From Candidatus Jordarchaeia archaeon (GTDB lineage Archaea > Asgardarchaeota > Jordiarchaeia > Jordiarchaeales > Jordiarchaeaceae): 21,143 bases of DNA. The notes below the pieces were generated by a model. That model was not told the origin of the DNA. It saw only the letters and a program-made list of their open reading frames with translations, and did not search any database. Below are positions 415-9,947 of this stretch, one piece after another (the stretch's first letter is position 1; each line of letters starts with the position of its first letter). The position numbers and the translations under genes are program-made. Where the stretch lies: positions 1-21,143 of the forward strand of contig JAHQXB010000138.1 of the NCBI GenBank assembly GCA_029856435.1, in the 5' to 3' direction.

Positions 415-1268
415 ATGGTGAAAGTTATTGGGGTTGAATATGCTAGGCCCGGGACATATAGTCCCCTAGAAATGATTGCAGTAGCTGGAGCACACACACT
501 AGAGGATAGAAAAACGGTGTCTGTGGGGACCGGTTACTGGCTCGGACGTGGCTAGCCGGATTTCCCATCATTGCATCAACTCTAGCGCAGTTAACGCATG
601 CTCCTAACCTGATCCCGATTTTTGAGGCTGGCAGTATAGGACCAATATTGGAGGCGGGGCTTCCTCTCTCTGTTGGTGATTCTAGGGCTTCAAATAGACC
701 CTGTTTATTGGGTGGACTCTGCACCGCCTTTGAACTTGCACAGAGGGGTGCTGTGGATTACGGTTTTATTGGTGGAGCTCAAATAGACAAGTATGGCAAC
801 GTTAACTCTACAATGCTGGGAAACTTTCCTAATGACTATCAGCATCCCAAAGTTAGGTTCTCAGGAAGCGGCGGAGCGGGAGCCATGGCTTGCTGCTGCG
901 AAAAGACAATAATAATTATGGTGCACGAGCGGGGAAGGTTCGTAGAAAAACTTGATTATCTAACTAGTCCCGGATATCTAGATGGAAGTAGAGACGCAAG
1001 AGAAAAAGCAGGGTGGCCGGGTTCCGGCCCTGTTCTAGTGATGACCAATTTGGCGTTATTGGATTTTGACGAAAAAACTAGGAGAATGAGACTAAAATCG
1101 GTTCACCTAGGGGTAACCGTCGACCAAGTGGTAGATGCTACAGGCTTTGAGTTGGTACTACCCAAGAAAGTAGGAGAAACTGAGCCGCCTACTATAGAGG
1201 AGTTAAGACTGCTAAGAGAGAAGATAGATCCCCATGGCTACTTTTTAAAGAAAACACTAAAAGAATAG
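415..1268 (+). CDS. Family I CoA-transferase subunit B (GctB-like), split as join(415..535,562..1268), 275 aa after removal of a 26-nt insertion
   Basis: Frame 1 from ATG 415 gives MVKVIGVEYARPGTYSPLEMIAVAGAHTLEDRKTVSVGTG. Frame 3 from 564 gives PIIASTLAQLTHAPNLIPIFEAGSIGP...GFIGGAQIDKYGNVNST...RFSGSGGA...FVEKLDYLTSPG. Joining gives VGTGFPIIAS, the family N-terminal motif. The likely catalytic Glu (FEAG, codon 624-626) lies upstream of the ORF-track start at 648. Confidence 0.88.
536..561 (+). other. Candidate 26-nt archaeal bulge-helix-bulge (BHB) mRNA intron
   Basis: GGGA(526-529)-CCGG(530-533)-TTA bulge(534-536)-CTGGCT(537-542)-loop-GGCTAG(550-555)-CCGG(556-559)-ATT bulge(560-562)-TCCC(563-566). 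Cleavage after the second nt of each bulge removes exactly 26 nt and restores the reading frame. Confidence 0.85.
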
Positions 1269-5690: not shown

Positions 5691-6935
5691 GTGGGTTCTT
5701 TGGGGCTAAAAGCGCTTTCCAACACTTCAGCGCGAGAAATCTTGGGAATTGCGTGTTTAAGTCTCTTTGTGGATTCTGTTGGTTATGGTGTAGTGGTTCC
5801 AATTCTTCCTACGTATGTCTTGTCTCTGGGGGCCTCAGATTACGACTTGGCACTCATTTTTTCCTCATTTGCCATGGTGCAGCTCTTCACTACCATACCC
5901 TTTGGTTTGTTTTCGGACAAGTATGGAAGAAAATTGTTCATGGTTACGGGAATGCTTCTTCTTGGTGCTTCTTTTATGTATTTTCCCTTCGCTCATAGTG
6001 TTCTTACACTTATTGCTTGTAGGGTGGTGCAGGGCTTGGCTGCTTCTGCTACTTGGTCTTCTGCCTTGGCTCTGGTTGCTGATGCGTATCCTGGTGGTGA
6101 TAAGGGTGAAAAGTTGGGTATTGCAAATGGGGCTGTGGGTTTGGGTAACATTGCTGGTCCATTGGTGGGGGGCGTTTTGGGCGATATTAATTTTGGTTTG
6201 CCCTTTTTGGTTATAGGTTCTGTTGCTTTTTTCGCCTGTTTCTATATACTTCTGAGATTGGAGTTGGAAAGAGGTGAAGCTGTGAAGGCTCCTGTAGGTT
6301 TTCGTGAAATGTTGCGGGGAGCTATCCGAGTCAGGAATGTTTTGTTGGTAGTTTTCATCAACCTTTTGATAGCTGTGTTTTTCGGCTTCATTGAGCCACT
6401 TTTGCCGCCTTACCTGAGTGGGAGGTTTAACCTCTCTGGTACCCAGATTGGTTTATTTTTTGGGGGCGCCTTCCTAACCTATGTTGTTTCACAGCCTTTT
6501 GTTGGAAGATTGTCGGACAGGTATGGGAGAAAGATATTCATTGTATGCGGGTTGATTGCTCTTAGCATCACGAATGTTGTGATTCCCTATCTTTCTGATG
6601 TGTTAACTCTTTTTGCACTGCTTGTTGTTATGGGGGTTTTTTGGAGTTTAGCGTATACGCCGCTTATGCCTCTTGCTGTGGATTCTTTGAGGAGCAAAAA
6701 TAGGGAAACTTTTGGGACAATGTCGGGTTTCTTCAATATTGCTTGGAACTCGGGCTACAGCATAGGTCCAATAATAGGGGCGCTGGTAACCTCCTATTTT
6801 GGTTTTGAATCGATATTCTGGTTTTTCAGCGGATTGCTGGTAGTAATGATAATTTTTGCCCAAACCTTGATAGCTGAGAAGAGAGTGTCTGTCTCGAAAA
6901 CGTCTATTAAAAATTTTATGAATAATAACAAATAA
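5691..6935 (+). CDS. MFS transporter (DHA1/TetA-like), paralogue 1
   Basis: About 12 hydrophobic segments; motif A GLFSDKYGRK and second-half GRLSDRYGRK. Confidence 0.93.
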   Translation: MGSLGLKALSNTSAREILGIACLSLFVDSVGYGVVVPILPTYVLSLGASDYDLALIFSSFAMVQLFTTIPFGLFSDKYGRKLFMVTGMLLLGASFMYFPFAHSVLTLIACRVVQGLAASATWSSALALVADAYPGGDKGEKLGIANGAVGLGNIAGPLVGGVLGDINFGLPFLVIGSVAFFACFYILLRLELERGEAVKAPVGFREMLRGAIRVRNVLLVVFINLLIAVFFGFIEPLLPPYLSGRFNLSGTQIGLFFGGAFLTYVVSQPFVGRLSDRYGRKIFIVCGLIALSITNVVIPYLSDVLTLFALLVVMGVFWSLAYTPLMPLAVDSLRSKNRETFGTMSGFFNIAWNSGYSIGPIIGALVTSYFGFESIFWFFSGLLVVMIIFAQTLIAEKRVSVSKTSIKNFMNNNK

Positions 6936-7056
6936 ATTTAAATAAATAGCCAAAAATTTCTTATTTTTTTAGGCTGAAAAATCGGTTAGCCTTAAAAGCA
7001 CTCCAGCCACTTTCTTTCTGGAGAAGACCAAAAAGCCGAGAAGGGGGCGTTAAAAT

Positions 7057-8337
7057 ATGCAGAGACTTTTTAAGAAGATGCCCCGCTCAACGGAAATACT
7101 AATAATGGTTTGTACCAGTGCATTTGTGGACTCGTTGGGATACGGTATAATAATTCCGTTCCTCCCACAGTACGCCATGTCCCTTGGCGCGTCTGACCTA
7201 GATGTGGGCATCATTTTCGCCACCTACGCACTGGTACAGTTAGTGACCACCATACCCTTCGGCTTGCTATCTGATCGTTATGGTAGAAGGCCTTTCATGA
7301 TTTCGGGAATGCTCCTTCTCGGTGTAGCTTCATTATTATTCCCCCTAGCCCAAACCGTGCACTTAATGATAGTATGTAGAGCAATACAGGGTTTGGCGGC
7401 TGCGGCGACCTGGTCTTCAGCCGTAGCATTAGTGGCAGACACATTTCCGGGAAATGATAAGGGAACAAAACTGGGAATAACGGCGGGAGTAACCAATATG
7501 GGAGGCATCGCAGGACCCTTATTAGGAGGAGCCCTATCCGACGTGAATTTCAACATACCATTTCTATTAATCGCCGCTCTCTCAATATTTATGTTCGCTT
7601 ACATGTTCTTCCGACTAAAACTCCCTCCCAGAGAAAATAAGGTGGGAGAAACTTCGTACATAAAGATGATAAGAGGTGCCCTAAGAATCAGAAACGTTGT
7701 TATAATCATACTCATTAATGCATTGACAATGATTTTCTGGGGCTTCGTAGAACCCTTAATGCCTCCGTACCTCTCTGGTAGATTTTCGCTGTCAAGTACC
7801 CAGATTGGCGTCATTTTTGGGGCCATGTCCCTCATCTATGCCTCAATTCAACCATTAGTGGGCAGACTCACTGACAAGTATGGACAGAAAAGATTCATAA
7901 TAGCGGGAATGGTCCTCCAGGCATCCATAGGTTTAATCATACCCCTATGCAGTGATCTGATAAGCTTAACCGTTTGCTTGGTGCTAATCGCCGCGGTGGG
8001 TGCCATAGCTTGGACACCACTAACACCCCTATATGTAGAATCTCTCCAAGACGGAAACATGGAAGCCTACGCAACAGTTGGTTCACTCTTTGGCACCGCA
8101 TACTACATAGGGTACATTATTGGGCCGGTAATTGGAACTCTGATAAGTTCCCATTTTGGATTTGGAGCAGTCTTCATCTTCAACAGCATAATACTATTAG
8201 CCCTAGTTCTCTTATCAGGATTGTATATTAAAGACGGAAAAAGGGCAGAGGAAAAAACGCAAGCAATGGAGGTTGAAACTTTCCAGACTAAGAAGCATGA
8301 ACCGCAAAAACCTCAGGAGTCAACAATAAGAGTTTAG
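7057..8337 (+). CDS. MFS transporter, paralogue 2
   Basis: GLLSDRYGRR and GRLTDKYGQK motifs; colinear with paralogues 1 and 3 (FVDSLGYG, EPLMPPYLSGRFSLS). Confidence 0.93.
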   Translation: MQRLFKKMPRSTEILIMVCTSAFVDSLGYGIIIPFLPQYAMSLGASDLDVGIIFATYALVQLVTTIPFGLLSDRYGRRPFMISGMLLLGVASLLFPLAQTVHLMIVCRAIQGLAAAATWSSAVALVADTFPGNDKGTKLGITAGVTNMGGIAGPLLGGALSDVNFNIPFLLIAALSIFMFAYMFFRLKLPPRENKVGETSYIKMIRGALRIRNVVIIILINALTMIFWGFVEPLMPPYLSGRFSLSSTQIGVIFGAMSLIYASIQPLVGRLTDKYGQKRFIIAGMVLQASIGLIIPLCSDLISLTVCLVLIAAVGAIAWTPLTPLYVESLQDGNMEAYATVGSLFGTAYYIGYIIGPVIGTLISSHFGFGAVFIFNSIILLALVLLSGLYIKDGKRAEEKTQAMEVETFQTKKHEPQKPQESTIRV

Positions 8338-8708
8338 ACCTGCTGAACATAAGATTGGTTTTACTTAATTCCACAATTAAATTTGTTCCACTGCAGTTTA
8401 TTTTCTTCACTCTCTGGATTTTCTGGCTTGCTGCTATCCATTTGCCGCCTATAGCAACTTGAAAAAGGAACCAACCCCGATTTAACTCCGAATTAGTGGA
8501 GTTCTCTCTAATAACGTAACCTACTTTCAATTAATAAAGGCGCACGGTTAACGAATGATTGGTGTGACTTATTTTTCCCAATTACCGGTTAGAATGTCAC
8601 AAACCACCCTCTTCTTTCAATCATTATTGAGATTTCTTCTTTTATCTATTTATGAAAAGTTAAGCTTAAAAATTTAAGAGCTACTGGTTTTTTGAAAAAT
8701 GGAATTAA

Positions 8709-9947
8709 TTGCGGGATCTGATTTTTTTGCGGTTATCACTAGCCAGGCCTAAACCGCCTATTGAAATATTAATCATAGTTTGCCTAAGTGCGTTTATAGA
8801 CTCCTTAGGTTACGGGATAGTGGTTCCTTTTCTTCCCCAGTACGCTTTATCACTAGGAGCCTCAGATTTAGATTTGGGTATTATCTTTTCCTCCTATGCC
8901 CTGGTGCAGCTGGTGACGGCTGTTCCTTTTGGGTTGATGTCTGACCGTTATGGCAGAAGATGGTTTATGATTAGTGGAATGCTTCTTCTGGGTGTGGCTT
9001 CTCTTGTTTATCCTTTGGCGCGAAGCGTACTTATGATATCGGCGTGTAGGGCTGTGCAAGGTTTAGCGGCTTCTGCTACTTGGTCTTCTGCCATAGCGTT
9101 GGTGGCTGACACTTTTCCGGGTAAAGATAAGGGGGAGAAGTTGGGAATCACAACTGGAGTATCTGGTATGGGTGGCATCGCGGGTCCCATGGTGGGGGGC
9201 GCCTTATCAGACATAAACTTTATTTATCCCTTCCTTCTCATAGCCGTCCTTTCTTTGGCTACCTTCATTTACATGTTTTTTAGATTGAAAATTCCCCGAA
9301 AAGAAAAAGTAGTTGAAGCTCCATCCTATGTGGAAACCGTCAAAAAGGCTTTGGGAATCAGAAACATTCTCATAATAATAGTTATCAATGCTTTAACTAC
9401 AATATTCTGGGGGTTCGTTGAGCCCTTAATGCCCCCATATCTTTCTGGACGTTTTTCGCTCTCCGCTACCCAAATAGGCTTAATTTTCGGCGGGGCGTCT
9501 CTAAGCTACGCAGTTTGCCAACCCTTTGTGGGCAGGCTATCTGACAGGTACGGAAGAAAGATTTTTATTGTAACCGGTATGGCTCTACTGGCGGGTGTGA
9601 ATCTATTTATTCCCTTCTGTGGAGACCCAGTAAGTTTAACAATAGTTATCATGTTAACTGCCTCTATTGGAACCTTAGCCTTTACTCCCTTGACCCCCCT
9701 GGCCATAGAGTCCCTTCAAGACCAAAATATTGAAGCCTATGCCACAGTGAACTCGCTGTTCGGTATAGCTTTTTATATAGGTTACAGCGCCGGCCCAGTG
9801 ATTGGAGCTCTAATCAGTTCCTATTTTGGATTCGAATCGATGTTCTTCTTCTACAGCATAGTACTGGTAACAGTGCTCCTCATGTCGCAGGCCAAATTAA
9901 AAGAAATGGTGAAAAAAGAAGCAGTAATAAAAGGCACAGAAGAATAA
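8709..9947 (+). CDS. MFS transporter, paralogue 3 (start uncertain)
   Basis: GLMSDRYGRR and GRLSDRYGRK motifs; colinear with paralogues 1 and 2. Confidence 0.92.
   Translation: MRDLIFLRLSLARPKPPIEILIIVCLSAFIDSLGYGIVVPFLPQYALSLGASDLDLGIIFSSYALVQLVTAVPFGLMSDRYGRRWFMISGMLLLGVASLVYPLARSVLMISACRAVQGLAASATWSSAIALVADTFPGKDKGEKLGITTGVSGMGGIAGPMVGGALSDINFIYPFLLIAVLSLATFIYMFFRLKIPRKEKVVEAPSYVETVKKALGIRNILIIIVINALTTIFWGFVEPLMPPYLSGRFSLSATQIGLIFGGASLSYAVCQPFVGRLSDRYGRKIFIVTGMALLAGVNLFIPFCGDPVSLTIVIMLTASIGTLAFTPLTPLAIESLQDQNIEAYATVNSLFGIAFYIGYSAGPVIGALISSYFGFESMFFFYSIVLVTVLLMSQAKLKEMVKKEAVIKGTEE

Follow-up and report, generated by a model that had tools for sequence, protein, structure and literature searches.

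How a gene whose two halves lie in different reading frames could still give one full-length protein is the question raised by a glutaconate-type CoA-transferase beta (B) subunit gene (ATG at 415, stop codon TAG at 1266-1268, + strand) of an Asgard archaeon (Freyarchaeia/Jordarchaeia). The gene lies near the start of contig JAHQXB010000138.1 (GenBank assembly GCA_029856435.1), of which positions 1 to 21,143 were analysed and are called the window here. Read through unspliced from ATG 415, its first part ends at a stop codon TAG at 553-555, which gives an open reading frame (ORF) of 46 amino acids (aa). We find that the 26 nucleotides (nt) at 536-561 are very probably a bulge-helix-bulge (BHB) intron within the coding sequence, removed by the splicing endonuclease EndA and the RNA ligase RtcB. 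A canonical BHB intron in the messenger RNA (mRNA) of a metabolic gene was what an earlier, sequence-only reading of this DNA had proposed; exact junctions, genes under selection and the presence of the machinery support the proposal, and on these grounds we infer that cleavage and ligation actually happen. The parts of the interrupted gene are as follows.

415-535, + strand: exon 1, 40 codons and the first base of codon 41, ending ...GGG ACC GGT T.
526-533, + strand: 5' strands of the outer helix (GGGA, 526-529) and the central helix (CCGG, 530-533), both exonic.
534-536, + strand: 5' bulge UUA, with the predicted cut between 535 and 536; its first two bases are coding.
536-561, + strand: predicted BHB intron of 26 nt, missing from about 190 homologues and from three close 275-aa alleles.
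537-555, + strand: inner hairpin (CUGGCU 537-542, loop 543-549, GGCUAG 550-555).
556-562, + strand: 3' strand of the central helix (CCGG, 556-559, intronic) and 3' bulge AUU (560-562), with the predicted cut between 561 and 562.
562-1268, + strand: exon 2, from the last two bases of codon 41 to the stop codon, including UCCC at 563-566.

Both exons are recognizable parts of one protein. Exon 1, which ends in VGTG, aligns N-terminally with about 190 homologues drawn from collections of genomes and metagenomes, and exon 2 matches the family PF01144 (E = 1.9e-17) and glutaconate CoA-transferase chain B (1poi_B, E = 5e-44). The homologues read GTG, then L, I or A, then P, with no gap at the site of the insertion. 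Removing 536-561 creates the junction GGT T/TT CCC and an open coding sequence (CDS) of 828 nt for 275 aa, which reads ...VGTG-F-PIIAS... across the junction; the joined CDS thereby confirmed the earlier claim that this excision would give GTGFP in the downstream frame and a 275-aa protein. Residues G38, T39, G40, P42 and E62 of the spliced protein fall in columns that are 98-100% conserved among 125 relatives, and Glu62, presumably the catalytic glutamate as in GctB, is E in 123 of these 125. On PF01144 criteria, the predicted spliced product is a family I CoA-transferase beta subunit of the glutaconate type. In relatives, the gene directly upstream is a 337-aa PF01144 gene (the A subunit), and in the window two features precede ATG 415.

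2-403, + strand: 3' end of the CoA-transferase alpha (A) subunit gene, truncated by the contig start, with the stop codon TGA at 401-403.
402-408, + strand: Shine-Dalgarno-like GAGGTGA, 6 nt upstream of ATG 415, read from the letters and conserved in a close relative (L003).

The insertion could next be compared among closely related alleles. The genome and metagenome contig collections contained only one orthologue above 63% identity, and further alleles were found via a protein collection. The 26-nt form was present in the window's genome (G000), G001, two more NCBI metagenome-assembled genomes (MAGs), four Logan runs and two JGI metagenomes, and all alleles together sort into four groups.

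26-nt insertion, intact gene: the window; Candidatus Freyarchaeota SQRJ_82 (G001); GCA_030587375; four Logan runs; Jordarchaeaceae MAG L204; three haplotypes.
26-nt insertion, decayed gene: two JGI metagenomes, L210 (3300043569) and L211 (3300060608); a fourth haplotype, pseudogene.
29-nt insertion: four assemblies of a second clade (L203, L217, L218 and L221); same site, intron region identical.
No insertion, 275 aa: L202, L215/216 and L208/209; junctions GGT TTG CCC, GGA TTG CCT and GGA CTC CCA.

The three close intron-less 275-aa alleles read contiguously over the predicted junction, as the BHB cut rule predicts and as the sequence-only reading had anticipated for alleles lacking the intron. 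Public annotation splits the interrupted gene into a "hypothetical protein" of 41 or 47 aa and a "CoA-transferase subunit beta" of 206 or 239 aa (MEX2723148.1 and MEX2723149.1 for L205 and L207; MFB0559833.1 and MFB0559834.1 for L203), so that the suspected mis-annotation of such genes can be seen in public records, for example as a 41-aa hypothetical protein followed by a 206-aa CoA-transferase.

The motif that would direct the excision had been located correctly at 526-566, in all coordinates and letters. Its outer helix pairs GGGA (526-529) with UCCC (563-566) over 4 bp, 3 of them G-C; its central helix pairs CCGG (530-533) with CCGG (556-559) over 4 bp, between two 3-nt bulges on opposite strands; and its inner helix pairs 537-542 with 550-555 over 6 bp, including two G.U pairs. 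The whole motif thus has 14 pairs (10 G-C), and the order of its elements along the strand is that of the canonical hBHBh' motif of precursors of transfer RNA (tRNA). In the best RNAfold structure of the window, the 3-nt 5' bulge and the central helix are present and a 2-nt 3' bulge is preferred, because A529 can pair with either U562 or U563; the predicted cut site is identical in both registers of the 3' bulge. The best fold and the centroid of L003 are both the canonical hBHBh'. With its bulges, 4-bp helix, flanking helices and functional exon junction, the element fits a canonical BHB.

From this anatomy and the established tRNA pathway, we infer a likely course of events. The pre-mRNA would fold such that the exon bases GGGACCGG pair with the 3' CCGG of the intron and the UCCC of exon 2, and this fold would present two 3-nt bulges that lie 4 bp apart. 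An alpha/beta splicing endonuclease would then cut after the second base of each bulge (535/536 and 561/562), and RtcB would ligate the exons to give the codons GGU-UUU-CCC (GTGFP) in the 275-aa frame; mRNA left unspliced would yield the 46-aa peptide only.

Substitution patterns indicate that the host genes of the intron-bearing alleles are under purifying selection, with ratios of non-synonymous to synonymous substitution rates (dN/dS) of 0.03-0.19. The spliced CDSs of the window and L003 differ by 35 synonymous and 15 non-synonymous changes (dN/dS 0.12), L003 and L204 give a dN/dS of 0.19, and comparisons of the 26-nt with the 29-nt clade give 0.03-0.04, with saturated synonymous sites. As the insertion is shared within each clade and the genes that carry it are constrained, it would have to be removed at the level of RNA or translation. 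Within the intron itself, 6 of the 26 positions differ between the window and L003, which is about the synonymous rate, and all six are in the loop or the distal stem. More generally, intact alleles show no variation in the central helix or at the base of the inner stem, their changes being confined to the loop, the distal stem and the bulges; the intronic CCGG strand of the central helix (556-559) is unchanged in every intron-bearing allele. The exonic bases of the 5' bulge vary (UU, AC), along with synonymous Gly changes and a Phe/Leu change, and the codon for Thr39 is ACC in all intact intron-bearing alleles and ACA, ACG or ACC in intron-less ones.

A DNA tree built from exons only has two clades, the first of which holds all 26-nt alleles. 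The second is arranged as (L208/9 without the insertion, (L203 with 29 nt, (L202 + L215/6 without))) with support of 99-100, a topology which requires that the intron was gained or lost at least twice at this one codon among close relatives, in a direction that is left unassigned as the tree is unrooted. In a wider protein tree, the gene was placed apart from the other paralogues of the genus, in a mixed and mostly bacterial clade (Bacillota, Syntrophales and few archaea) whose members are all intron-less; we claim no direction of transfer from this placement. The protein collection contained no 275-aa protein of clade A, as a cDNA-derived contig would give, and we do not count this against splicing.

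The genome to which the window belongs is 97.8% complete and encodes the machinery that such splicing would use. It has two EndA (PF01974) paralogues (G000 C104:1178-1756 and C64:5764-6357). One of them, with Tyr, His and Lys at the catalytic positions, is similar to the alpha subunit of Aeropyrum (3p1z_B, E = 3e-45); the match to 3p1z_B covers the N-terminal stretch GQPLGIRKPKSPQF, which may be the L1 loop that has been associated with broad specificity. In the second paralogue, Thr replaces the catalytic His. Two such paralogues would fit an (alpha-beta)2 endonuclease, the type that has been assigned to Asgard archaea and linked with a broad substrate range (PMC5829648). RtcB is also present, encoded by the only rtcB gene (PF01139, E = 5e-174), and this gene and at least two others of the same genome (G000) carry inserts of the same kind, with a further candidate in a fourth.

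G000:C73:22783-22813 (L193:1284-1314), - strand: 31-nt canonical BHB insert in cbf5, splitting the TruB motif GTL/D/P.
G000:C136:1384-1411 (L194), - strand: 28-nt BHB insert in hypD, splitting ...FVHICG/T/HEQTI.
G000:C93:1547-1576, - strand: 30-nt in-frame insert with a TGA in rtcB, between ...TLPD and AHQGYGFPIGG.
G000:C68:10550-10582 (L222:551-583), + strand: candidate 33-nt BHB intron in an aconitase-family gene, ...VMVHEMLG/M/RIAQIY....

The best fold of the cbf5 insert is a textbook hBHBh' (z = -2.1), with the Pfam domain DKCLD upstream of it and TruB_N (from profile position 17), TruB_C_2 and PUA downstream. The hairpin of the hypD insert is very stable (z = -5.5); exon 2 of this gene matches HypD profile positions 29-351 (E = 5e-133), and removal of the insert joins an N-terminal stretch to the HypD frame. 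The rtcB insert folds as CCCG-aca-CAUG...CAUG-CGGG-aag, a relaxed BHB with an outer helix of 2 bp, such that the mRNA of the splicing ligase would itself need splicing. For the aconitase-family candidate, the best fold is canonical and exon 2 matches PF00330 from profile position 88; its 45-aa exon 1 is too short to confirm. The tRNA genes of this genome are interrupted as well: only 2-7 in the whole genome are recognizable by ARAGORN or the Rfam tRNA model, and the recognizable tRNAs, five of which were inspected by hand, have 20-33-nt inserts at non-canonical sites (D-loop, anticodon region and variable region). The majority of its tRNA genes must be so heavily interrupted that standard tools miss them. 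Taken together, Freyarchaeia/Jordarchaeia may routinely interrupt protein genes (metabolic enzymes, cbf5, hypD and rtcB) with tRNA-type mini-introns that come and go, by gain or exact loss at one and the same codon, about as fast as species diverge, a generalization for and against which we see the case as evenly balanced.

Several observations weigh against a BHB intron in the window, and they concern the shape of the motif, its evolution and the state of the gene. As for shape, a scan with a loose definition (3+4+3 bp, G.U allowed, with the mirror-image motif as control) found 60,442 matches in the 3.54-Mb genome vs 61,092 for the mirror image, and the local folding energy of the window motif is ordinary (z = -1.1); thus, shape alone proves little. 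Moreover, a 2-nt 3' bulge register fits L204 better, and the 29-nt allele has no clean 3-nt 5' bulge and is only relaxed on the inner side. As for evolution, no base pair changed on both sides and shuffles were not exceeded, among 5 haplotypes only. In the same 5 haplotypes, 91% of pair cells hold standard pairs vs at most 55% with slid partners, and four further pair types arise by one-sided changes. The helix pattern is, as far as these sequences indicate, one of conservation and not of covariation: in intron-bearing alleles the helices are kept, whereas the covariation that had been foreseen earlier was not seen.

What makes the motif informative is its exact size and position. The protein alignment independently demands that 26 nt be removed, at about 4 possible placements, and among 7.08 million positions there are 3 motifs of equal score with exactly 26 nt between the cut sites (d = 26), compared with 2 in the mirror control, so that the rate per position is about 3e-7; combining this rate with the 4 compatible placements gives a probability of about 1e-6. 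The earlier judgment that chance is unlikely is upheld by size and placement; the shape of the fold taken by itself adds little to it. Among ORF-joining BHBs genome-wide, this one is in the top four (score >= 36: 4 real vs 1 mirror; 4 vs 0 when d <= 60). Overall, the loose ORF-joining scan of the genome gave no excess over the mirror control (1440 vs 1504) and was informative only at top scores (13 vs 5 at score >= 28 and d <= 35; 3 vs 0 at score >= 32), and most lower-ranked candidates resembled noise once translated. One more candidate, of 55 nt in a gene of the NMO family (C104), was rejected, as its exon 1 does not look coding. When the motif was run against the genome with blastn-short, no further copy turned up, so that by sequence the intron is not a repeated element, and an Rfam scan of the window gave no match.

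The state of the gene bears on the alternative that survives best, though we still consider it unlikely, namely that the gene is a dead or dying pseudogene and the 26 nt are an unspliced insertion that folds like a BHB by accident. The terminal branch of the window appears relaxed, with 12 synonymous and 13 non-synonymous changes, and six replacements (F36S, L41F, P141S, R165G, I201M and P223L) hit residues with 90-100% conservation across 125 relatives. The nearest allele to that of the window, in L210/L211, has a 1-nt deletion that shifts the frame, G40V, a central helix broken to CCGU and a split A subunit, and another genome of the same genus (G004) retains no more than a degraded 3' fragment, interrupted by a TAG and by frameshifts (L094:3350-3675). 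The gene is thus, to judge from these remains, being lost in part of the genus. Against a pseudogene, the insertion is older than the split of lineages that evolve at the low dN/dS given above, with no stop codon or frameshift in the 828 nt, and an intron-like motif of this quality would have had to fall by chance on exactly the right place. Even the branch leading to the window has fewer replacements than neutral evolution would give (binomial p of about 0.001; rounded counts of 13 non-synonymous and 14 synonymous), and the window's own BHB and exons are intact. The A subunit, of which 133 aa are visible, departs from the consensus of its relatives at 2 residues. The pattern that the sequence-only reading had named as damaging to its case, a BHB-breaking change together with a decaying gene, was found in one lineage, L210/L211, while the other intron-bearing alleles retain both the helices and an intact gene. 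Overall, these comparisons indicate that the intron is genuine at the level of the lineage and suggest relaxed constraint or altered function for the copy in the window; we lean modestly toward this copy still yielding an active enzyme.

More improbable still is translational recoding, in which ribosomes would either shift frame within 510-553, adding about 9 residues, or bypass from Gly40 to the GGA at 558-560. Such a reading could draw on the frame of exon 2 being open for about 18 codons upstream of 564, on the CCGGA found at both ends of the insert in L003, and on the insert lengths of 26 and 29 both being 2 modulo 3. Yet no slippery heptamer was seen by eye, a bypass in the window would leave from GGU and land on a different codon, GGA, and the codon after take-off is UAC and not a stop. 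A frameshift would furthermore add 9 poorly conserved residues to a loop in which about 190 homologues show no gap, and the cbf5, hypD and rtcB inserts of the same genome fit BHBs without a repeated codon. To our knowledge, no frameshift or bypass at such a site has been reported in archaea. An assembly or sequencing artefact, an idea that has in its favor only that the window is a MAG contig starting inside a neighbouring gene, can safely be set aside, because the insertion (26 or 29 nt) recurs with its own substitutions in more than ten independent assemblies from NCBI, Logan, ENA and JGI.

The reading of 536-561 as a BHB intron places it in a very rare kind. Splicing had been confirmed for no archaeal protein gene besides cbf5 (Yokobori 2009, PMC2738675), and a later study restated cbf5 as the only other mRNA case while adding a BHB intron in the 5' untranslated region of HVO_1309 of Haloferax volcanii (Schwarz 2020, PMC7714728). 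Asgard tRNA genes have been described as intron-rich, in a preprint without mention of introns in mRNA or coding sequences (bioRxiv 10.64898/2026.10.13.758758), and our literature search turned up no description of BHB introns in the protein genes of Asgard archaea. In the searchable literature, BHB splicing inside a coding sequence is confirmed for cbf5 alone.

A close parallel is the crenarchaeal cbf5 intron of Desulfurococcales and Sulfolobales (Watanabe 2002; Yoshinari 2006; PMC2738675), which is also short and within the CDS (16-44 nt, vs 26-29 nt here). Shared features include a flanking BHB that is often relaxed, a cut between the second and third bulge bases, a host with a hetero-oligomeric endonuclease, patchy presence among relatives and mis-annotation of the gene by gene callers. 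The two cases differ in that the host gene here encodes a metabolic enzyme rather than an RNA-modification enzyme, in that the organisms are Asgard archaea here and Thermoproteota there, and in that the evidence here is comparative whereas spliced cDNA was sequenced for cbf5. Non-canonical introns of archaeal tRNAs (PMC5829648) resemble the present one in motif, size class (20-33 nt in the tRNAs of this genome) and presumed enzymes; unlike them, the CoA-transferase intron would be removed from an mRNA, would need a base-exact splice to keep the frame and has half of its motif made of codons. Action of EndA on an mRNA has been shown in vivo and in vitro for the HVO_1309 intron (PMC7714728). That intron, unlike ours, sits in an untranslated leader and interrupts no codon. 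A further parallel is found in the splicing of HAC1/XBP1, where the nuclease IRE1 acts with the ligase RtcB or Trl1 and the XBP1 intron has 26 nt. There too, a short intron leaves an mRNA without the spliceosome, the frame shifts and a tRNA ligase joins the exons. Unlike the archaeal case, HAC1/XBP1 splicing is regulated and cytoplasmic and uses another nuclease and recognition motif, so that the two work alike without being of the same family.

If the generalization to Freyarchaeia/Jordarchaeia were true, genes in pieces and a strict need to splice mRNA would already exist in close prokaryotic relatives of eukaryotes, and expression of rtcB would require the RtcB protein itself. Should RNA work confirm it, this lineage would regularly express genes through mRNA splicing by the tRNA machinery, and gene callers would be systematically reporting such genes as fragments or pseudogenes. 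The comparative set is unusually clean, with intron-bearing, exactly intron-less and decayed alleles of one gene, and gain and loss of introns in protein genes could thus be studied in prokaryotic relatives of eukaryotes. To connect this with how spliceosomal introns arose would be speculative.

The surroundings of the gene in the window offer some minor observations. An insertion sequence (IS)-like element occupies 1334-2573, between the CoA-transferase B gene and thrS, which are separated by only about 207 nt in relatives. It has inverted repeats of 17-19 nt (TGCTGTGTTGCA..AATT) at 1416-1434 and 2555-2573, a solo copy of the repeat at 1334-1350, and a DDE_Tnp_1 transposase broken into several short ORFs (1776-2447). 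Further along, at 5691-9947, three MFS_1 transporter paralogues of 414, 426 and 412 aa lie in tandem, and downstream of this trio are thiolase-like, PurN-like and ADP-forming acyl-CoA synthetase-like genes and GlcD/GlcF-like FAD and CCG-domain genes. The neighbourhood is one of ordinary acyl-CoA metabolism.

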